From: Escherichia coli 042
GTDB lineage: Bacteria > Pseudomonadota > Gammaproteobacteria > Enterobacterales > Enterobacteriaceae
DNA: 64,000 bases
Strand: one strand, 5' to 3'
Assembly (NCBI RefSeq): GCF_000027125.1
Contig: NC_017626.1
The translations under genes and the position numbers were made by a program. Below the pieces are notes generated by a model. It did not search any database and was not told where the DNA came from. It saw only the letters and a list, made by a program, of their open reading frames with translations. This document shows, one piece after another, positions 24,120 to 32,103 of the stretch; positions within the stretch are counted from its first letter, which is position 1, and the number at the start of each line of letters is the position of its first letter.

Positions 24120-25364
24120 ATGGCAAGAAAGGCGACCCCACTCACCACCACACAGATCAAAGCAGCTAAACCAGCGGAAAAAGAATACACCTTACAGGAT
24201 GGCGGCGGGCTTTTTCTCGTCATTAAGCCATCTGGTTCGAAACTATGGCGATTCAACTACTATCGACCATCGAACAAAAAACGAACAATCATTAGTTTGG
24301 GATCGCTCGATGAAGTCTCCCTGGCTGATGCCAGAAAACGCCGTAGCGAGTACAGGACGTTAATTGCGTCAGGGATTGACCCACAGCATCACGAGCGGCA
24401 AAAACGCGAAGCAGAGGCCAGAAGACAGGGCAACACGTTCGAAAATGTGGCCGCATCGTGGTACGAAATGAAAAAAAACCAGAATCTCGCCCACAATACG
24501 ATCAAGGACATCTGGCGCTCGCTAGAGAAATATGTATTCCCGTATATCGGAAACACACCGATAGATACTCTCACCGCTCGCCGCTTTGTTGAGATACTCA
24601 CGCCCATCAAGACACGTGGCAACCTGGAAACACTGAAACGCGTTTTACAGCGCATCAATGAAGTGATGGATTTTGCTGCCAACAGTGGACTGATTGACAT
24701 CAACACCGCTGCGAACGTCCGCAAGGCATTCCCTTCCCCCACCAAAAAACACATGCCAACCATCCGACCAGAACAACTACCGCAGCTAATGCACGATTTA
24801 TCGATCGCCAGCATAGAACGGCAAACCAGATTGCTGATTGAGTGGCAGTTGTTAACCGCAACCCGTCCAGCCGAAGCCTCCGCCGCACGGTGGGAAGAAA
24901 TCAACCTTGATGCGGCAACATGGACGATACCAGCCGGACGCATGAAGATGCGCCGTGATCATGTGATCCCTCTTTGCGCTCAGGCGATGGCAGTGCTTGA
25001 AGCCATGAAGCCGATTAGCGCACGAAGGGAGCATGTTTTCCCAAGTCTTAAAAATCCAGTGCAACCAATGAGCAGCCAGACAGCAAACGCAGCATTACGG
25101 CGAATGGGTTACACTGGTGTACTGGTATCTCACGGGCTACGCGCCATATTCAGCACAGCGGCGAACGAAGAAGGATTTGAGCCGGACGTAATCGAGGCCG
25201 CACTCGCACACGTGGACACGAACGAAGTTAGACGGGCATACAACCGAAGCAACTACCTGGAAAAACGTAAAGTGTTAATGTGCTGGTGGGGTGATTTTGT
25301 GGAAGCAGCCTCAACCGGAACAACCATCGCCAGCGGGCACAGGGGATTACGCGGAATAAAATAA
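24120..25364 (+). CDS. int: P4-family tyrosine integrase
   Basis: 414 aa; N-terminal arm-binding-type region (KEYTLQDGGGLFLVIKPSGSKLWRFNYY...), C-terminal catalytic region with HGLRAIFST and a tyrosine near the end (RAYNRSNY); adjacent to a tRNA gene in the same orientation. Confidence 0.85.
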   Translation: MARKATPLTTTQIKAAKPAEKEYTLQDGGGLFLVIKPSGSKLWRFNYYRPSNKKRTIISLGSLDEVSLADARKRRSEYRTLIASGIDPQHHERQKREAEARRQGNTFENVAASWYEMKKNQNLAHNTIKDIWRSLEKYVFPYIGNTPIDTLTARRFVEILTPIKTRGNLETLKRVLQRINEVMDFAANSGLIDINTAANVRKAFPSPTKKHMPTIRPEQLPQLMHDLSIASIERQTRLLIEWQLLTATRPAEASAARWEEINLDAATWTIPAGRMKMRRDHVIPLCAQAMAVLEAMKPISARREHVFPSLKNPVQPMSSQTANAALRRMGYTGVLVSHGLRAIFSTAANEEGFEPDVIEAALAHVDTNEVRRAYNRSNYLEKRKVLMCWWGDFVEAASTGTTIASGHRGLRGIK

Positions 25365-25377
25365 AATATTTAAAAAA

Positions 25378-25417
25378 TTATTGGTTCCTAATTGGTACCA
25401 ATTTGGAGCCAATTTGT
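25378..25417. promoter_or_regulatory. operator-like palindrome cluster in the int-alpA intergenic region
   Basis: ttattggttcctaattggtaccaatttggagccaatttg contains the perfect 14-bp palindrome aattggtaccaatt (25390-25403) flanked by CCAATT/AATTGG half-sites, in an AT-rich region upstream of alpA. Confidence 0.4.
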
Positions 25418-25616
25418 GTCTCTTTACTGTCTCATTTTGAGAAATATTTAAAATTCTTTTTATGTTAGAAAATTAAAAAATAACCAATCACATAACTCTT
25501 ATTAAATAATTCTTGACTTGCTTTTTTATAGATTTGTATTCTTTTTATATGTTTTTACATGTTTACCGTCATTTTCATTCAAAAAGCGGTATTTTACTGT
25601 CTATAGGAGAAATAAG

Positions 25617-25808
25617 ATGAGGGCTATTCTTTTACGACCAGAGGTCAAGGCCTTGCTACGCATTAAATCTGATTCAACCCTAACGGAGATGGTTAACAAA
25701 GGCGGGTTCCCCAAAGGATTCCGTATCGGGCTGCGTCGCATTGGCTGGTATGAAGATGAGGTACTCGCCTGGTTGAAAGAACGTGAGAGAGAAACTCGTG
25801 AAGCATAA
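25617..25808 (+). CDS. alpA: AlpA-family phage transcriptional regulator / excisionase-like HTH protein
   Basis: 63 aa from the ATG at 25617 with an AGGAGA ribosome-binding site; MRAILLRPEVKALLRIKSDSTLTEMVNKGGFPKGFRIGLRRIGWYEDEVLAWLKERE has the AlpA-like pattern (...IG.R.IGW.E.EV..WL). Confidence 0.7.
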   Translation: MRAILLRPEVKALLRIKSDSTLTEMVNKGGFPKGFRIGLRRIGWYEDEVLAWLKERERETREA

Positions 25809-26266
25809 GTGTGATTAACGCTGGCCTGATTACTATCAAGCAACAAAACAATTAAGAGAGAACATTATAAATACTGGCAAAAATGCCCAAACAGGGGCAG
25901 GTTTTCGTTCAACCATAAAAAATTATGGCTGATGTTATTATTCAGTTCAAACCGTACGAACGAATTAATTGAACTAATAGCACTTCCGTTTTAAACGGAA
26001 ACGTACAATCGCATAGCTTAAACGACAAAAGAAATATGTTGCTTACGAATAAAACAAAGGCGACCGCAGAGGGTCGCCAGAAGGCATATATTAAACTTGA
26101 ATGCATCGCCAACAATGCCATATTTCCGGCTGGTGAGCAATGTGATTTGTGTGGTGGGCACACCTTCAACACATCCGACCACATGAGCAAGAAAACGGGA
26201 TATACTCACCAAATCCCTTATAAAACGGGGATCGGGATTACCACCCCGCTGGAGTTAACGGCGATA

Positions 26267-26290
26267 CAGACGCGCCACGCGTCTTTTTTT
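26267..26290 (+). terminator. candidate intrinsic terminator inside the alpA-icd gap
   Basis: cagacgcgccacgcgtc followed by T7 (GC stem gacgcg/cgcgtc, short loop), preceded by further stem-loops at 26058-26079 and 26226-26248. Confidence 0.5.
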
Positions 26291-26454
26291 GTATCGACGC
26301 ACACGCACGCCTTATCAATGGTGGGCTGTATGGGGCTGACTTCGGTCAGGCTGGTTTCCGTTAACACCAGTTGTGGTAACCCTGTACAGTCCACCGCCAG
26401 CGAGCTTACCACCTCCTGCGGTGGGTATATCCCAACGTTAACGGAGGCTGCCAA

Positions 26455-26694
26455 ATGGCTACTATCCCTGCCCTCGCACATACTCAGAACGCCTTTATCT
26501 GGCGCTTTATCATCGTTAATCCGAGTGATTCCCGCGTCGTTCACGTCGTGGCGTCAACCGAACAGGAAGCGCGTAACCGTTGTCCGTCCGGTTGTGTTGC
26601 CGTATTCGCTGCCCGTATTCGTCAGGGGGTAAGTCATGCTCAAGCGATTCCAGATAACCGCACGCGCTGTAAATCATCAAGGCCACGTTATTGA
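26455..26694 (+). CDS. Icd-like (host cell division inhibitor-like) small phage protein
   Basis: 79-aa ORF with a GGAGG ribosome-binding site 8 nt upstream; MATIPALAHTQNAFIWRFIIVNPSDSRVVHVVASTEQEARNRCPSGCVAVFAARI resembles the Icd-like small-protein family as I remember it. The 3' end overlaps the next ORF by 58 nt in another frame, so the true C-terminus is uncertain. Confidence 0.5.
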   Translation: MATIPALAHTQNAFIWRFIIVNPSDSRVVHVVASTEQEARNRCPSGCVAVFAARIRQGVSHAQAIPDNRTRCKSSRPRY

Positions 26695-26821
26695 TATTCG
26701 GCAAAACGTGAACGCCACCAGCGTTAATGCAGCTATAGCAATATTGAAAGAAGAGTTAATCGGCTGTAGGTTCACGCAGGTGATGATCCGTGCCGTAGTT
26801 GAAGTGTCGACTGTTCATTAA
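26636..26821 (+). CDS. hypothetical small phage-island protein
   Basis: 61-aa ORF with a strong GGGGGTAAG ribosome-binding site; MLKRFQITARAVNHQGHVIDIRQNVNATSVNAAIAILKEELIG...; no function recognised. Confidence 0.45.
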   Translation: MLKRFQITARAVNHQGHVIDIRQNVNATSVNAAIAILKEELIGCRFTQVMIRAVVEVSTVH

Positions 26822-26860
26822 TCTCATTAATACAGCTTTAACAAAAACGTAATTCGACAA

Positions 26861-27148
26861 ATGAAAGCAAAAAATTCTGGCTTTACTGCCAGCGGTAAAA
26901 CTCGTCCTAAATTCATGCACGGCGATATTTACCGCGATAAATACGGCAGCACGGTAATGATTAAGGGCGTGAGTGAACGACGCATTACCTACCGCCGTGA
27001 AGGATACAAATATGACTGCGTGATGCCTGTTTATCAGTTCCAGCGTGATTTTACGCTGGTGGATCATCGTGAAACCGTAAATCAGAACCGTGCAGCAAGA
27101 TACATCCGCAAAATCTGCGAAATGATGGTTACTGGGGGCAAGAAATGA
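26861..27148 (+). CDS. hypothetical protein, translationally coupled to the primase gene
   Basis: 95-aa ORF whose TGA stop overlaps the ATG of the downstream 712-aa ORF (ATGA); basic protein; no recognisable domain. Confidence 0.4.
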   Translation: MKAKNSGFTASGKTRPKFMHGDIYRDKYGSTVMIKGVSERRITYRREGYKYDCVMPVYQFQRDFTLVDHRETVNQNRAARYIRKICEMMVTGGKK

Positions 27149-29283
27149 AACGCGCACCGAATTTAAAGCACCAGCCGAAAGACAAAATGACGGAGGTGAT
27201 TATCTTTGCGGGTAGTGATGCCTGGGCACATGCGAAAGAGTGGAGCGAATGGGCCGGAAAGCATATTGCGGCAGATGATACACATCCAGTTATTCTTGGA
27301 CCGGAACAACTGGCGAGTCTGGCAGACACGCAAATCATCGACAAAGGGCGCTATTACGTGCGCGTTTATCGTGCTGGTGAAATATCAGAGCAGCACCTTA
27401 CACAGATAGCGACACTGCTTGCAGTGGCGGGTGTGAAGGAGGCGCGTTGCTACCGCAGCTTTGTTGATCAGCAGCCGGAGGACTGGACACCGCGCATGGC
27501 TGGACTGAAGGATGATGCGGAACGCGGTAACAGTCTGGTGATCAACCTTCCGGCGAAGACAAATTTCACCGGAAATTATGATGACGAATTAAAGCCTCGT
27601 GTTGAAAGTCGCGTCGATGGTGTTTTCTGGGTAACGCCCAAAGTGGACAAGCAGTCAGGCGAAATTATCCGGCCTGAGACGTGGTTATGTTCTCCGCTTG
27701 AACTACTGGGAACAGGAACAATCGGCAAAGAGCATTACCGCGTGATGCGCTGGAAAAAACCAGCAAACCATGAGGTCATTACAATGGCGGTCCCGTGCGG
27801 AGGCATTGGTGACCGTGACGGCTGGCGGTTGCTGAAAGACCACGGCCTTAACGTGACGACCAACGGCAAATACAGGGCTATCCTGGCTGACTGGATGCAG
27901 TTAAGCGGAAACCATGAGGAATGGCAGTTAAGCACAACAACGGGGTGGCATTTTGGTGCGTACATCATGCCGGATGGTTCGATCATCGGTGAATCAGAGA
28001 AACCCATCCTGTTTACCGGAAAAACTGCCGCTGTTAATGGCTATTCCGTGGCGGGAACAGCGGAGGGCTGGCGCGATACCGTGGCACGGCTGGCTGGTGG
28101 TAATCCGTCCATGATGCTGGGTGTGGCGGTATCGCTATCTGCACCATTAATCGGGCTGGTGGGTGCTGACGGCTTCGGGGTTCATCTTTTTGAGCAATCA
28201 TCAGCAGGTAAAACCACCACACAGAACATTGCATCAAGTTTATGGGGAGAGCCGGACGCGCAACGGCTGACCTGGTACGGAACGGCGTTAGGTATCGCCA
28301 ACGAGGCCGAAGCACATAATGACGGGCTGTTACCCCTGGATGAAATAGGCCAGGCCGGAAACGCACGGGAAGTGTCCACGTCGGCTTATACGCTGTTTAA
28401 CGGTTCGGGGAAATTACAGGGGGCGAAGGACGGCGGCAACAGGGAGATAAAACACTGGCGAACAGTGGCAATCAGTACCGGAGAAATGGACGTTGAAACA
28501 TTCCTCAAAAGTGAGGGGATAAAAGTCAAGGCTGGGCAGCTTGTCCGGTTGCTTAACGTGCCGATGGAGAAGTCCACGCAGTTTCACGAATACAGCACAG
28601 GAAAGGCGCACGCAGACGCGTTAAAGGATGCCTGGACAGCAAATCACGGGGCGGCAGGTCGTGAGTGGATTAAATGGCTAGCAGCCCACCAACAGGAGGC
28701 TAAGGACACGGTAAGGGCATGCCGTGAACGGTGGCGCAACCTGATACCGGAGAGCTACGGCGAACAGGTTCACCGCGTAGGGGAACGATTCGCCATACTG
28801 GAGGCCGCGCTTGTGCTGTCAGGCAATGTTACGGGCTGGGATGTTCAGGCGTGCCGTGATGCCATTCAGCATAACTTTAATGCCTGGGTGAAGGAGTTCG
28901 GCACGGGTAACAAGGAACACAGGCAGATTATTGAACAGGCAGAGGCATTTCTTACTGCCTACGGCATGAGCAGGTTTGCGCCTGTCAATTATGACCCTGC
29001 AAGCCTGCCGATTTCAGAACTGTACGGCTACAGGGAAAGCGAGGGGCGTTACGGTGAGCCTGTTTTGTTTTACGTCCTGCCGGAGCCATTTAAATCGCAT
29101 GTGGCGAAGGGATTTAACAAGGATGCCGTAGCAAGAGCCCTTCACGAAGCCGGAATGCTGAAAAAGCCAGCCAGCGGGGAAGGATGGCAAATCAGAACAC
29201 CACGTCTTAAGCACATGAAGGGGGCACGACTAAGGGTGTACGGCCTTTTACTTGCACAGGATCATGATGATGAAGGTGGTTAA
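27145..29283 (+). CDS. primase/helicase-like replication initiation protein (P4 alpha-like; P-loop NTPase core)
   Basis: 712-aa ORF; central Walker A-like FEQSSAGKTTTQN followed by acidic DE-type motifs (LPLDEIG); the size and the iterons immediately downstream fit a satellite replication protein. An alternative start at 27187 (MTEVIIFAG) is possible. Confidence 0.65.
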   Translation: MKRAPNLKHQPKDKMTEVIIFAGSDAWAHAKEWSEWAGKHIAADDTHPVILGPEQLASLADTQIIDKGRYYVRVYRAGEISEQHLTQIATLLAVAGVKEARCYRSFVDQQPEDWTPRMAGLKDDAERGNSLVINLPAKTNFTGNYDDELKPRVESRVDGVFWVTPKVDKQSGEIIRPETWLCSPLELLGTGTIGKEHYRVMRWKKPANHEVITMAVPCGGIGDRDGWRLLKDHGLNVTTNGKYRAILADWMQLSGNHEEWQLSTTTGWHFGAYIMPDGSIIGESEKPILFTGKTAAVNGYSVAGTAEGWRDTVARLAGGNPSMMLGVAVSLSAPLIGLVGADGFGVHLFEQSSAGKTTTQNIASSLWGEPDAQRLTWYGTALGIANEAEAHNDGLLPLDEIGQAGNAREVSTSAYTLFNGSGKLQGAKDGGNREIKHWRTVAISTGEMDVETFLKSEGIKVKAGQLVRLLNVPMEKSTQFHEYSTGKAHADALKDAWTANHGAAGREWIKWLAAHQQEAKDTVRACRERWRNLIPESYGEQVHRVGERFAILEAALVLSGNVTGWDVQACRDAIQHNFNAWVKEFGTGNKEHRQIIEQAEAFLTAYGMSRFAPVNYDPASLPISELYGYRESEGRYGEPVLFYVLPEPFKSHVAKGFNKDAVARALHEAGMLKKPASGEGWQIRTPRLKHMKGARLRVYGLLLAQDHDDEGG

Positions 29284-29308
29284 TCTCTCGCGTGTAGGTT
29301 TAAAAACT

Positions 29309-29443
29309 CTTGTCCCACCTGTCCCAACCTGTGAGAAACACACATAACATACTGAATTATATTGGGTAATATCAGAAAAAGTGGGACAAGAGCGGGACAA
29401 GTTAAGGTGATTTTGGGACAAGTTAGGAGCATTTTGGGACAAG
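29309..29443. repeat. iteron cluster 1 (GGGACAAG repeats), putative origin of replication
   Basis: Inverted copies CTTGTCCC at 29309-29316 and ctgtccca at 29319-29326, an AT-rich spacer, then four direct GGGACAAG copies at 29383-29390, 29394-29401, 29415-29422 and 29436-29443; immediately downstream of the primase gene. Confidence 0.6.
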
Positions 29444-29519
29444 TCAGCAGGCGTTATTTTTTGCCTGGCTGGTGGACATTAAAAATCCAACCAACATTTA
29501 AAACCGGAGAGCAGACAAT

Positions 29520-29945
29520 ATGACGGCACAAATATCAGCTTACGGGCGGTTGGTGGCTGACCCGCAGTTAAAAACCACCAGCAAGGGAACACCAATGGCG
29601 CTGGTGAGTATGGCTGTTCCCCTTCCGTGCAGTCAGGCATATGACGGAACAGCGACGATGTGGTTATCCGTCCTGGCGTTTGGCAGACAGGCCGATGCAC
29701 TGGCAAAACACCAGAAAGGCGAACTGGTGAGCATGGCGGGTAACATGCAGATAAGCCAGTGGACAGACCAGAACGGGGAAATGCGGCAGGGCTGGCAGGT
29801 CATCGCAGACAGCGTAATCAGTGCGCGAACCGTGCGACCAGGAGGCAGGAAAGGACAGCAAGGGCAGGCTACTGACGCACTGAACAGAACAAAGCAGCAG
29901 ACGGGCCAGCAGGATGACCCGTATGAGGACGAAATACCATTTTAA
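29520..29945 (+). CDS. ssb: single-stranded DNA-binding protein (SSB-like, OB fold)
   Basis: 141 aa; SSB-like layout with conserved aromatic positions, a Gly/Gln-rich linker and the acidic tail ...DDPYEDEIPF that resembles the E. coli SSB C-terminal DDDIPF. Confidence 0.75.
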   Translation: MTAQISAYGRLVADPQLKTTSKGTPMALVSMAVPLPCSQAYDGTATMWLSVLAFGRQADALAKHQKGELVSMAGNMQISQWTDQNGEMRQGWQVIADSVISARTVRPGGRKGQQGQATDALNRTKQQTGQQDDPYEDEIPF

Positions 29946-29980
29946 CTGCCAGTGGATTCACTAACAGAGGTTAACAAATA

Positions 29981-30517
29981 ATGACTACACTGACTATTAG
30001 CAGAAAACCGAAAGGCATTTACGGCATACCACAGAAAAAGACACAGACGACACAGCAGCAGGATAAAACCACATCAGCGCATAAAGTGATACCCGGCAAT
30101 CAGAACGCACAGCAGAGCCGCAAACAGAAGCCCACAGGGGCGACACCGTGGCGGCATATGACCAAACGCCAGGGCAAAAACCGCAGGCGCGTTAACCGTC
30201 TTATTGAACTATGGCCTGAATTATTCAGCCTGGAATCACCGAAGCCGCTTAAGGTAGGAATATTTGAAGACCTGATACAGGATATTGCCGTCAGGGCGCT
30301 GGCTTTTGGGTCAGGGGCATTACGTGCGGCGCTAGCATCTTATGCTCATTCTCCGCGTTATTACCGTGCCTTAATGGCTGGTGGCGTGCGTTACGATCTG
30401 AATAGCCAGCCATGCGGCGAGGTGACACAACAGGAACAGCAGGACGCGGAAGCACGACTGATGGCACTGAAAGAGAAGCGCAAACGTAAGTCGAACAAGG
30501 AGCAAGCTGGCGTATGA
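29981..30517 (+). CDS. FinO/ProQ-family RNA-chaperone-like protein
   Basis: 178 aa; basic Q/K-rich N-terminus, then LIELWPELFSLESPKPLKVGIFEDL...RYYRALMAGGVRYDLNSQPCGEV, which resembles the FinO/ProQ N-terminal domain signature; assignment from memory only. Confidence 0.5.
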   Translation: MTTLTISRKPKGIYGIPQKKTQTTQQQDKTTSAHKVIPGNQNAQQSRKQKPTGATPWRHMTKRQGKNRRRVNRLIELWPELFSLESPKPLKVGIFEDLIQDIAVRALAFGSGALRAALASYAHSPRYYRALMAGGVRYDLNSQPCGEVTQQEQQDAEARLMALKEKRKRKSNKEQAGV

Positions 30518-30798
30518 GTATGATTCACGACAGCAAAGCGGAAGATCTGGAGGCTAAAGGCCTGTACCGGAGAGCGGCAGCCCGATGGGCTGAGGTCATG
30601 CAACAGGTGAACACCGATAAGGAGCGCGAACAGGCAGTAAAGCGTCGCGCGAAATGTATCCACAAGGCAGCACGTTCGCCCGTCATGCTGGATAATTTCG
30701 GGGGCTTGAGAGAGGCAGCAAACCGCACACAGGCGGATATGGGGATAGAAATCGCAAAATCTGTCTGGCGGAACTACCAGACAGACAAGGTTTTATAG
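30514..30798 (+). CDS. PerC-family transcriptional regulator-like protein
   Basis: 94 aa; AEDLEAKGLYRRAAARWAEVM matches the PerC/Pch-type motif (AE.LE..GLWRRAA.RW..VM); start overlaps the previous stop (ATGA coupling). Confidence 0.55.
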   Translation: MSMIHDSKAEDLEAKGLYRRAAARWAEVMQQVNTDKEREQAVKRRAKCIHKAARSPVMLDNFGGLREAANRTQADMGIEIAKSVWRNYQTDKVL

Positions 30799-30854
30799 TG
30801 GCAGTTCTGCATTATTTTTTGTGTTATTGAGTTGTAGAGCGTTTCAGGAGTTTT

Positions 30855-31064
30855 TTGAATCACATGAACGTTTCGCTGGTGGATATTCTTGACAAGTTGC
30901 AGCCAGGCCGACGCGTGCCAGCTCGCCGCAGTGCCTGGCATCTTCCGTACATCGTCTTTCTCGAACGGCGCGGAAACGATTTGATTGCGTTGAATCCCGT
31001 CACAAAGGATAGCGTTACGCTATCTCCTGAGAGTCTACTAGCCACAGACTGGGAGTACTGCTAA
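30855..31064 (+). CDS. hypothetical protein
   Basis: 69-aa ORF with a CAGGAG ribosome-binding-like site upstream; last ORF before the ~0.9 kb non-coding iteron region; no recognisable motif. Confidence 0.3.
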   Translation: MNHMNVSLVDILDKLQPGRRVPARRSAWHLPYIVFLERRGNDLIALNPVTKDSVTLSPESLLATDWEYC

Positions 31065-31597
31065 ACACAAACGCATCGAGGGTGCTGGCGTGTTGCCAGC
31101 CCCACCCCCTCCGAAATGATCCCCCAAAAAGTGCAAAATGATCCCCCATTAACGAACAGAAAACAAACAAAGAGCAACAAATAATCATTATTTACAATTC
31201 TTGACAAAAACACCCCCTATTTATAACCCTACCAAATTTAAAATTACATCTACAAAACAATAAGTTACAAAATCAGCAACGGATCATTTCGGAAAAAACG
31301 GTTAGTCCCTTTTTCGAAAAGGGATCATTTTGTTGCTTAAACTCATATGCGGATTACATATCAATACGCTAGTGATAGCCGTTCTGGAATGCCACAGAAA
31401 CGCGCTGTAATCGATTCTGGCGCAATTAGCTGTGCTAGGTAATGATTTACCTATCTGGGGATGTTGCGCACGTCTGGATTGCGTTACCACCGAAGATTGT
31501 GCGCATATGGTGGCTGTTACGGTGGCCTCCCGACAACGCAAAATTGCGGCGGCACAGTCGGTTTACCGCGCTAACACGGCTTGATTCACTCGCTCGA

Positions 31598-31717
31598 CTT
31601 GTCCCACCTCCCCCCCCAACTTGTCCCAAAACAGCCTAGACTTGTCCCACCTTACCTAATTTATTTCTAACAAAATCAATTTGTTAGGTGCTGGTGGGAC
31701 AGGTGGGACGGGTGGGA
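31598..31717. repeat. iteron cluster 2 (CTTGTCCC x3 and GGTGGGAC x3 flanking an AT-rich spacer), putative second cis-replication site
   Basis: CTTGTCCC at 31598-31605, 31618-31625 and 31640-31647; inverted GGTGGGAC(A/G)G at 31692-31699, 31701-31708 and 31710-31717; followed by (TA)n at 31729-31740. Confidence 0.6.
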
Positions 31718-31998
31718 CGGGTGGTTTTGTATATATATATACGAAAAATTGCATTCAGGAGGGGGGCGAAATTCCTGCAATCCATTACTTATGGAACTGT
31801 CCGCCCCGTCAAATTTTTACGCCCGCGCAATTAAAAAAATGCGTCACGCAGGTGGGCATGATGCCGATATGCTTGTCGGGTTCAGCTTTTTAAGGCGGCT
31901 GTAGATGTCAGGTTATCCGTGCTCATCCACCAGCCAGCTTCATAGCGGATAGCCGGAAAATGGTAACGGTTAAAGCTGTACATTTTTGCAGCAAATCA

Positions 31999-32023
31999 TT
32001 TTAGTTATACGTTTAGATATACG
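31999..32023. repeat. right boundary direct repeat (putative attR)
   Basis: ttttagttatacgtttagatatacg, 23 of 25 identical to 24034-24058. Confidence 0.5.
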
Positions 32024-32103
32024 ATTTCAAAACTCAATTAATCTACATCTTTAAAATCATGCAGTTACAGAATCAATTAAACTACTCTCGTGGCCAAAAA
32101 TCC

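Follow-up and report, generated by a model that had tools for sequence, protein, structure and literature searches.

PICIs are widespread, and they serve as vehicles for gene transfer, the modulation of virulence and defence against phages; the genes that follow their replication origin have been little studied save for Rpp. Two described elements, EcCICFT073 and EcCIEDL933 (also called Sp7, OI-51 or CP-933C), are integrated between roxA and phoQ and share one gene order: a P4-type integrase, AlpA, an Icd-like gene, a DUF4222 gene (named RgdR in Sp7 and CFT073 by Flockhart et al.), a primase, an iteron origin and an SSB gene. In both, a PerC-family gene (PchE in Sp7) comes after SSB and is itself followed by capsid or packaging genes. 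Another PICI, EcCIMP1, carries its PerC gene far from the primase and has no SSB or FinO-like gene; it was mobilised experimentally despite lacking a recognisable packaging module.

FinO-domain proteins have been described from other mobile elements. FinO (F-like plasmids), FopA (pCol1B9) and PcnR (IncI2) each have a single FinO domain, a basic disordered N-terminus and no ProQ C-terminal domain; they repress their own element via structured RNA, and their disordered extensions give chaperone activity (PMC9977716). The cf-PISP satellite-plasmids of Vibrio, compared here by description only, are episomal with parA and repA, and their ProQ/FinO protein is classed there, without further study, as a plasmid-maintenance function (Nat Commun 2026, PMC13230959). 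A full-text literature search returned no report joining FinO/ProQ proteins with PerC, integrases, primases or chromosomal islands, and its lone satellite mention concerned Vibrio.

The window analysed here is a 64,000-nucleotide stretch of the Escherichia coli 042 chromosome. It contains a PICI-type phage satellite of ~8.2 kb at tRNA-Pro, in the yejM/yejO interval, with the following features in order:

23837-23913, plus strand: tRNA-Pro (GGG), whose 3' end is the left attachment site (ARAGORN, Rfam)
24120-25364, plus strand: int, a tyrosine integrase (414-aa ORF; PGAP names the homologue in the related locus L001 'integrase domain-containing protein')
25617-25808, plus strand: alpA, an AlpA-like helix-turn-helix regulator (ORF; PGAP HTH regulator)
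26213-26401, plus strand: IsrK-like RNA (26213-26289), then C4 antisense RNA (26314-26401) (Rfam)
26455-26694, plus strand: icd, an Icd-like small ORF, 99% identical to the L001 'host cell division inhibitor Icd-like protein' of PGAP
26861-27148, plus strand: DUF4222 protein, homologue of RgdR (ECs1581/c1493) (ORF, PGAP DUF4222)
27145-29283, plus strand: primase/helicase of DUF927 type, the satellite replication protein (phrog_1139 DNA primase, E=2.7e-166; PGAP DUF927)
29309-29444, no strand: replication origin, with inverted GGGACAAG iteron sets either side of an AT-rich stretch
29520-29945, plus strand: satellite SSB, 141 aa (Pfam SSB, TIGR00621, matches to solved SSBs)
29981-30517, plus strand: FinO-domain protein, 178 aa (Pfam, PDB sequence matches, AF2 and Foldseek)
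30514-30798, plus strand: PerC-family protein, 94 aa, or 92 aa from the ATG at 30520 (Pfam, phrog_994, AF2)
30855-31064, plus strand: 69-aa ORF with a phrog_7206 match (E=1.3e-6), 99% identical in the related loci L001 and L008
31598-31720, no strand: second origin-like iteron cluster, with the same 8-mer in inverted sets around an AT-rich stretch
32076-32089, no strand: right satellite end, a degenerate copy of the tRNA-Pro 3' end (CTCTCGTGGCCAAA)

Comparison with other genomes defines the borders. Where the site is empty, the tRNA-Pro region is joined directly to window position 32085 onwards, and the alignment of K-12-type genomes starts only at 32085. The element therein shares the order of EcCICFT073 and EcCIEDL933 through SSB and PerC but lies at tRNA-Pro, carries a FinO-like gene that both lack, has a second iteron cluster downstream of the SSB/FinO-like/PerC-like trio, and is without their capsid or packaging genes. 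PICIs were delimited by co-oriented backbone genes, an att site, a size of about 8-15 kb and no phage structural or lysis genes of their own; here the integrase, alpA, primase-replicase and iteron origin are co-oriented and the att site is specific. No packaging or interference gene (Rpp, TerS, capsid, terminase) was recognised among the ORFs of 30799-32084, and the SatelliteFinder criteria would place the element in the low-confidence 'Type C', as for EcCIMP1. That the element works as a satellite is an assumption. The integrase type, AlpA and the C4/CI-type RNA are P4-like traits; assignment to the P4-like satellites was rejected on finding no psu, delta or sid gene among the ORFs of 23914-32084.

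The integrase is 97% identical to its L001 homologue (tblastn), and relatives carry Pfam Phage_AlpA at the position equivalent to the AlpA-like gene. The IsrK-like RNA (RF01394) scores 52.9 bits against a gathering threshold of 50 and the C4 RNA (RF01695) 77.7 bits against 45; a terminator-like hairpin at 26268-26284 is followed by T7, and this region upstream of icd resembles a P1/P4-type RNA immunity cassette. The DUF4222 gene, 61-67% identical to its Sp7 and CFT073 counterparts, overlaps the primase start as ATGA.

Origin analysis places the three genes that follow. The window as a whole (64 kb) holds 8 copies of the 8-mer GGGACAAG/CTTGTCCC, all of them within the two clusters. The first lies between the primase and SSB genes, which agrees with the initial annotation in putting the trio after the origin; its layout matches the description of PICI origins (PMC6092414), and in relatives this position is taken by iterons specific to each element. 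The two clusters flank the trio, whereas in relatives both iteron units lie upstream of SSB. On the plus strand, neither a promoter-like site nor a strong terminator was predicted from the primase gene to the end of perC; judged only by these absent signals, the trio may be co-transcribed with the primase gene. The trio makes up the distal part of the string of rightward genes, directly after the primase gene and the iteron origin.

On balance, and with moderate confidence, we favour a reading of the trio as three functional genes of a PICI-type satellite at tRNA-Pro: a backbone SSB, a FinO-like protein that would tune its own element via RNA, and a PerC-like adaptor.

The first of the three proteins matches Pfam SSB PF00436 (E=3.5e-15, residues 4-99), exceeds the NCBIfam TIGR00621 (ssb) cut-off (61.5 bits against 53.95) and matches 25 solved SSBs by sequence. 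The acidic tail reported in the initial annotation is present: the C-terminus reads DDPYEDEIPF, aligns with EEELPF of Thermus SSB, and has D137, P140 and F141 invariant across 7 satellite SSBs. At 66% identity to the SSBs of Sp7 (EcCIEDL933) and EcCICFT073, it is, by homology and position, part of a satellite replication backbone common to these PICIs. It would coat the single-stranded DNA produced by satellite replication after induction, and its ...DEIPF tip probably recruits host replication and repair proteins.

The second protein belongs to the FinO-domain family, as had been proposed. The Pfam check returned ProQ/FinO PF04352 (E=1.7e-24, residues 69-171, model positions 6-107 of 109). 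In the AF2 model (pLDDT 84-95 across residues 61-170), a basic disordered N-terminus (1-60) precedes a FinO domain (62-150) and a long basic C-terminal helix. Foldseek matched 1dvo, 7rgs/7rgt/7rgu, 3mw6 and 6s10 at a probability of 1.00, and target TM-scores reached 0.85. The fold agrees with those of FinO (1dvo), terminator-bound RocC (7rgu) and NMB1681. PDB sequence matches were to ProQ, FinO, NMB1681 and RocC, the best being the N-terminal FinO domain of ProQ (5nb9, E=1.1e-13). Unlike ProQ, the protein has neither a linker nor a Tudor-like C-terminal domain, ending at residue 178 after one helix, and its gene is non-core in E. coli. It shares the single-domain layout of FinO, FopA and PcnR and is ~33-34% identical to FinO/FopA across the domain. 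Those proteins are also encoded by mobile elements, but on plasmids, whereas this gene lies directly beside the replicon of a chromosomal phage satellite.

Conservation centres on the RNA-binding pocket. K91, R115, Y127 and R137 align to ProQ K35, R58, Y70 and R80, which form the pocket for the RNA 3' end and are essential in ProQ and FopA (PMC7491321). These residues are invariant or at least 90% conserved among 17 family members, K91, Y127 and R137 being invariant. The NCBIfam cut-offs are missed for both FinO (NF010317, 67.1 bits against 136) and ProQ (NF003434, 63.4 bits against 127), so the function of the protein cannot be transferred by orthology. By analogy, the protein's most likely targets are one or a few structured RNAs, bound at the hairpin and 3' tail, through which it would adjust how the satellite itself replicates or is induced. 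We infer this self-tuning because the studied plasmid proteins FinO, FopA and PcnR work in this way. A parallel with plasmid leading regions that pair ssb and fopA was rejected, as the two pCol1B9 genes lie 17 kb apart and FopA is only 34% identical.

Candidate RNA partners were sought. The C4/IsrK RNAs are present in the window and in loci L008 and L011-L013, and absent from L002-L006, L009 and L010, all of them FinO-positive. Among 62 IMG/VR loci, C4 was found in 2 of 18 with FinO and 8 of 44 without (Fisher p=0.71), and this failure to co-occur rules it out as a dedicated partner. It may instead be a universal partner with FinO as an optional addition, by analogy with FinP/FinO of F-like plasmids. 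The second candidate, a conserved minus-strand hairpin with a U-run over the DUF4222 start codon, showed good U-tracts only in FinO-positive elements among the first nine loci. Across 43 distinct sequence classes, the same starts are seen in FinO-positive and FinO-negative elements; with this failed co-occurrence and no conserved antisense promoter, the hairpin was rejected as a FinP-like antisense RNA. Finally, the flanks of finO hold no non-coding sequence conserved between satellite and pathogenicity-island contexts, and homology ends at the coding sequence.

That none of these searches yielded a satellite-specific partner RNA fits a different explanation, in which the partners belong to the helper phage: the FinO-like protein would bind helper antisense/immunity RNAs or late-operon leaders and the PerC-like protein would modulate helper transcription, so as to trigger, time or interfere with the helper. 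Manipulation of helper gene expression is common among satellites, PICIs keep interference genes in the post-origin region where the FinO-like and PerC-like genes lie, and ProQ-type proteins bind prophage RNAs. We nevertheless regard a weapon of this kind as unlikely. No helper is known for the window element, and PADLOC defence models matched neither the three proteins nor neighbouring genes. Among the post-origin genes of EcCICFT073, an element without the FinO-like gene, only rppA blocked lambda. The FinO-like family also occurs in pathogenicity islands that have no satellite backbone. In addition, the PerC-like protein was considered as an Rpp, the PICI packaging redirector, and this was rejected as it has no PDB-chain sequence match at E<=1.

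A further proposal concerns these proteins more widely. Satellite FinO-like proteins of Escherichia, Salmonella and Citrobacter could form a separate functional class of FinO-domain RNA chaperones, in which each protein would act with an RNA of the satellite or its helper phage to set how many satellite copies are made or when the helper is exploited; this we put forward tentatively, as a possibility still somewhat doubtful. If true, it would add an RNA layer to enterobacterial satellite-helper biology. For the FinO/ProQ field, the gain would be another FinO-domain protein that coexists with ProQ, and sometimes with FinO/FopA, in one cell, and its RNA targets could reveal how satellites use RNA regulation.

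The third gene encodes a full-length member of the PerC/Pch family (EPEC PerC, EHEC PchA-E), in line with the original call: Pfam PF06069 matches at E=1.7e-32 (residues 3-89, model positions 1-88 of 90) and phrog_994 at E=2.6e-36. The family motif A..LE..G..RRA..RW is invariant. Its translational coupling to the FinO-like gene had also been proposed. In the sequence ATGA, the ATG at 30514 shares bases with the FinO-like stop TGA (30515-30517); the start given by PGAP and shared by most homologues is 30520, two codons on and 2 nt past that stop. Whichever start applies, the two genes are closely coupled. The AF2 model predicts TPR-like helices at moderate confidence (pLDDT 75, pTM 0.47), and three-helix hairpins of this sort fit many folds. 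The ANR (AraC negative regulator) family is a resemblance only, since the NF033650 match (residues 8-54, E=0.006) reaches 16.4 bits, below the cut-off of 32. On the model, the protein would be a small TPR-like helical adaptor that alters transcription via protein contacts, not through DNA binding of its own.

Its relatives are best known for their effects on virulence, and a role of the FinO-like and PerC-like genes as cargo selected to reprogramme the host, for instance LEE virulence regulons, with SSB merely alongside, was therefore weighed. Plasmid PerC activates LEE and EcCIMP1_025, PICI-borne like PchE, strongly represses LEE1 in C. rodentium (Pick et al. 2025), while some PICI-encoded PerC variants activate LEE (Fillol-Salom et al.). 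Against this, the window protein is 56-59% identical to its EcCICFT073/Sp7 counterparts, and its nearest studied homologue, PchE (59%), had no effect on LEE1, nor had the EcCICFT073 protein, according to Pick et al. (2025), citing Porter 2005. Family members thus variously activate, ignore or repress LEE1, and function is not transferable among them. PerC-like genes also hold a fixed replication-adjacent position in PICIs of UPEC, which are LEE-negative per Flockhart et al.

Distribution bears on the same question. Both genes are variably present, like accessory genes, and the FinO-like gene has an identical copy in E. albertii NBRC 107761. E. albertii is a LEE-carrying species. Near-identical elements, however, are found in E. 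coli of chickens, pigs, deer, frogs and humans, and because of this host range a virulence-regulon-specific role is unlikely as the general function. Selection for host reprogramming therefore seems improbable to us; within the satellite-centred reading, the effect of the PerC-like protein on LEE-type promoters would depend on the variant and is probably secondary.

To place the trio among related elements, 77 SSB-bearing loci were compared. Neither gene was present in 40, FinO only in 15, PerC only in 11, both in 8, and FinO with a partial PerC in 3, so that all combinations occur (FinO 26/77, PerC 22/77). Where both are missing, capsid genes come directly after SSB. Between SSB and the packaging or accessory genes there is a variable slot, which the FinO-like and PerC-like genes occupy, and on that ground the label 'accessory' is fair for them. 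The 'cargo module' of the initial annotation is only partly right, as SSB belongs to the replication backbone: the order primase, origin, SSB, PerC recurs in EcCICFT073 and EcCIEDL933. The SSB-PerC block is a shared backbone or near-backbone, into which an intact, selected FinO-domain gene is inserted in about a third of related elements.

In near-identical E. coli loci PGAP gives these same three annotations. The arrangement is a largely ordinary one that hundreds of genomes already have in their annotation. The trio is a correct annotation of an ordinary element and no discovery; only its FinO-like member was previously unstudied. Of 5426 complete E. coli genomes, 1090 have DNA matches to that gene (387 near full length), and none of the matches lies on a plasmid; the best PLSDB plasmid match is a pathogenicity-island-type copy. 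A scan of genome contigs with the FinO alignment returned 2 loci only.

The small size of the element and the absence of a recognised capsid, terminase or Rpp-type gene could also suggest a defective satellite whose three genes drift without current function. Pathogenicity-island copies are often frameshifted or truncated, and PerC is disrupted in a common relative (L002 type) whose FinO protein, P0057, is found in >4,000 assembly blocks. Such decay is nevertheless highly improbable here. The three ORFs are intact and under purifying selection, their dN/dS against relatives (0.10-0.36) being similar to that of the primase. Key residues are invariant, and the element retains an intact integrase, alpA, primase and set of iterons. 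EcCIMP1, too, was mobilised although it has no recognisable packaging module.

Gene order around the slot varies beyond presence and absence. The trio is seen also with another primase type and in the order SSB-PerC-FinO, and relatives carry defence or toxin-antitoxin-type cargo further downstream of the slot. The 69-aa ORF that follows PerC in the window occurs in the same element of other strains.

The SSB, FinO-like and PerC-like genes lie within an island of ∼8.2 kb that has yejM/tRNA-Pro(GGG) on one side and yejO on the other. In island-free genomes, K-12 included, alignment to the window begins only at 32085, adjoining tRNA-Pro, and at 32076-32089 the tRNA 3' end recurs in degenerate form. 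As a PICI-type satellite, the element is ordinary.

Features of the island, from left to right
24120-25364, integrase, the leftmost gene
25617-25808, AlpA-like regulator, after the integrase
26213-26401, IsrK-like RNA and C4 antisense RNA (Rfam 52.9 and 77.7 bits, both above gathering)
After the C4 RNA, Icd-like ORF
26861-27148, DUF4222 gene, its 3' end overlapping the primase start (ATGA)
27145-29283, DUF927 primase (phrog_1139, E=2.7e-166)
29309-29444, origin, an AT-rich stretch with inverted GGGACAAG iterons on both sides
29520-29945, SSB ORF, co-oriented with the next two, 141 aa (PF00436, E=3.5e-15, Pfam-A)
29981-30517, FinO-like ORF, co-oriented, 178 aa (ProQ/FinO PF04352, E=1.7e-24, residues 69-171, Pfam-A)
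30514-30798, PerC-like ORF, co-oriented, 94 aa (PF06069, E=1.7e-32, Pfam-A)
After these three, right of the origin, 69-aa ORF

The initial annotation had placed three such ORFs after the origin. Their coordinates agree exactly, the iteron cluster at 29309-29444 precedes the SSB gene, and Pfam-A matches bear out all three identities. Both the FinO/ProQ and PerC domains were recovered and the observation therefore stands; its interpretation is partly supported. The SSB ORF scores above the curated NCBIfam ssb cut-off (61.5 vs 53.95 bits) and has the acidic tail proposed for it, ending in DDPYEDEIPF; the aligned residues of solved SSBs form their acidic ...LPF tip. The FinO-like protein stays well short of the 136-bit NCBIfam cut-off for FinO proper (67 bits) and of the 127-bit cut-off for ProQ proper (63 bits). 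Its stop codon shares bases with the PerC-like ATG (ATGA, 30514-30517); PGAP and most homologues start PerC two codons further on, at 30520. The two genes are tightly coupled whichever start applies, as had been suggested. Purifying selection acts on each of the three genes (dN/dS 0.10-0.36, a level like that of the primase). In nearly identical E. coli loci, PGAP already names their products "single-stranded DNA-binding protein", "ProQ/FINO family protein" and "PerC family transcriptional regulator".

The wider gene context was obtained from look-ups around diverged FinO-like proteins. The order SSB-FinO-PerC recurs in Salmonella and E. coli loci with DUF927 primases (L011-L013). Among loci of the D5_N/DUF5906 primase type, one from Citrobacter (L010) has FinO-PerC without SSB and another (L006) has SSB-PerC-FinO. 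A Serratia locus (L009) reads primase-origin-FinO, and one common variant (L002-L005), whose FinO protein P0057 is listed in >4,000 assembly blocks, carries SSB-FinO followed by a disrupted PerC. In L002 (8479-9123), PerC is split: only its C-terminal 57 residues remain, and in its place stands a chimeric ORF of 138 aa that combines Ant-like and terminase-like fragments. The recognizable cargo of these relatives lies further downstream and includes GmrSD/HEPN, TumE and SocA-type toxin-antitoxin genes, together with three large ORFs without a Pfam match.

To enlarge the sample, 80 IMG/VR loci were fetched with an SSB alignment, of which 77 were kept, with at least 1.5 kb after the SSB.

Genes after the SSB in IMG/VR loci
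Neither FinO nor PerC: 40/77
FinO only: 15/77
PerC only: 11/77
FinO and PerC: 8/77
FinO and partial PerC: 3/77

Where both were missing, capsid, decoration or protease genes followed the SSB directly. The SSB is therefore backbone, and a single variable slot may hold the FinO-like gene, the PerC-like gene, both or neither. The term "cargo module", originally applied to all three, is thus half right: it suits the latter two genes and fails for the SSB.

Comparison with studied PICIs identifies what is new. EcCIEDL933 (Sp7/OI-51 of O157:H7 Sakai) and EcCICFT073 share the order Icd-like, DUF4222, primase, origin, 83-85-aa ORF, SSB and PerC family gene (PchE in EcCIEDL933), followed by capsid or packaging genes; SSB then PerC after a PICI origin is therefore already described, as is this kind of origin layout (PMC6092414, 2018). 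The window proteins are 66% identical to the Sp7 SSB and 59% to PchE. The FinO-domain gene between SSB and PerC is the window's addition over both islands. EcCIMP1 differs: its PerC gene is far from the primase, and it lacks both an SSB and a FinO-like gene. Of the genes that follow the origin in EcCICFT073, rppA alone blocked lambda; PADLOC found no defense model in the three genes or their neighbors. The PerC-like protein matched no PDB chain by sequence, and its candidacy as an Rpp homologue was therefore ruled out.

The PerC-like protein would be a small adaptor, acting through protein contacts. Published tests of PICI PerC homologues disagree: EcCIMP1_025 repressed LEE1 (Pick et al.), PchE and the EcCICFT073 protein are reportedly without effect on LEE1 (Pick et al., citing Porter 2005), and some variants activate LEE (Fillol-Salom et al., PMC6092414). 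Any virulence effect probably depends on the variant. The DUF4222 gene is homologous to RgdR (ECs1581/c1493), so named by Flockhart et al. and reported by them in 2012 to activate type III secretion and repress motility; it may be a second candidate host regulator of the element besides PerC.

Among solved structures, the FinO-like protein best matched the ProQ N-terminal domain (E=1.1e-13), FinO (1.4e-10), NMB1681 and RocC. Its AF2 model predicts the FinO fold with confidence (pLDDT 84-95) from residue 62 onwards, after a disordered, basic, Gln/Thr-rich N-terminus, and Foldseek returned FinO-family structures exclusively, including RocC bound to a terminator hairpin. Residues K91, R115, Y127 and R137, the counterparts of ProQ K35, R58, Y70 and R80, are fully or almost fully conserved across 17 members of the family. 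The ProQ-type C-terminal domain is absent from the protein. Identity is low to plasmid FinO (∼33%) and to FopA of pCol1B9 (34% over 83 residues), thus defining a separate clade with an architecture of the FinO/FopA/PcnR type. These three proteins each repress their own plasmid's transfer or replication via structured RNA, their chaperone activity being supplied by disordered extensions (Liao and Smirnov review, PMC9977716). Because of this analogy and the location beside the replicon, the FinO-like protein most likely tunes the replication or induction programme of its own satellite.

Candidate partner RNAs were considered. Some FinO+ elements have the C4 and IsrK-like RNAs and others lack them; these RNAs were rejected as a specific partner, as 62 loci gave no association (C4 in 2/18 FinO+ vs 8/44 FinO-, p=0.71). 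A hairpin in codons 6-11 of the DUF4222 gene (CTGGC-N6-GCCAG, 26867-26892), preceded by an A-run (a minus-strand U-run), has the form of a terminator when read on the minus strand. Nearly all of about 90 related loci retain it at the same position; in L009 and L011 the stems differ yet still pair, with different encoded residues, and a variant in L092 pairs on the minus strand only (G-U). The hairpin appeared FinO-specific in nine loci, then proved equally present in FinO- elements, and was likewise rejected; a search for its conserved antisense promoter found none. Across different contexts finO loci share no flanks, homology stopping at the coding sequence. In the FinOP system, FinP is known as a feature of all F-like plasmids, and their finO is often inactive. 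The co-occurrence test would accordingly miss an RNA partner that is universal while its protein is optional.

The IsrK-like RNA, with its own terminator (26268-26284), and the C4 RNA immediately precede the Icd-like ORF, resembling a P1/P7/P4-type RNA immunity cassette, and head the gene string running via the primase to the PerC-like gene. PGAP instead calls a truncated "ash family protein" over 26213-26401.

At the DNA level, the FinO-like gene matched in 1090/5426 complete E. coli genomes (387 near full length), never on a plasmid. More distant matches sit in pathogenicity-island-type regions beside YagK/YfjJ (inovirus Gp2-like) and AlpA genes, and these copies are often truncated or frameshifted. 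A related family (60-75% protein identity; L015-L017, L019) is convergent with YagK/YfjJ and AlpA genes, near pap/afa fimbrial, dnd and resistance genes, with one copy on an IncI conjugative plasmid. ProQ or FinO found no mention in the PICI/satellite papers examined; full-text searches turned up a single mention of ProQ/FinO on satellites, for the cf-PISP satellite-plasmids of Vibrio (PMC13230959). The FinO-domain gene is already annotated and is common enough to deserve a targeted experiment on its function.

A second origin-like unit, with inverted sets of GGGACAAG iterons around an AT-rich stretch, lies 2.2 kb downstream of the first (31598-31720), so that the two bracket the SSB to 69-aa ORF segment; no copy of the 8-mer (8 in the 64-kb window) falls outside these two clusters. 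Relatives with two units have both together upstream of the SSB. The arrangement in the window is reminiscent of P4 with its ori and crr, or may reflect rearrangement. Just inside both element ends are 25-nt direct repeats (24033-24057 and 31999-32023, 92% identical; TTAGTTATA(T/C)GTTTAG(T/A)TATACG), which probably serve the integrase as arm-type binding sites.

The right arm, otherwise non-coding, could encode a small RNA at 31201-31335: a TTGACA hexamer at 31201, with only a weak -10 candidate, is followed ∼100 nt downstream by a terminator-like hairpin (31305-31325) and CATTTTG. Beyond the window, this stretch is shared only by further copies of the element (L001, L008). L001 (strain EF7-18-51), otherwise 98-99% identical, carries an insertion (22576-24948, at window ∼31774) flanked by IS1 copies and containing part of a phosphorothioation-dependent restriction endonuclease gene, which marks the right arm as a site of cargo gain and loss. 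Apart from E. albertii, a GTDB species-representative scan returned only one distant relative, in Serratia oryzae (42% identical). The element is also present in E. albertii NBRC 107761 (L008), where the FinO-like protein is 100% identical; it therefore moves between Escherichia species.
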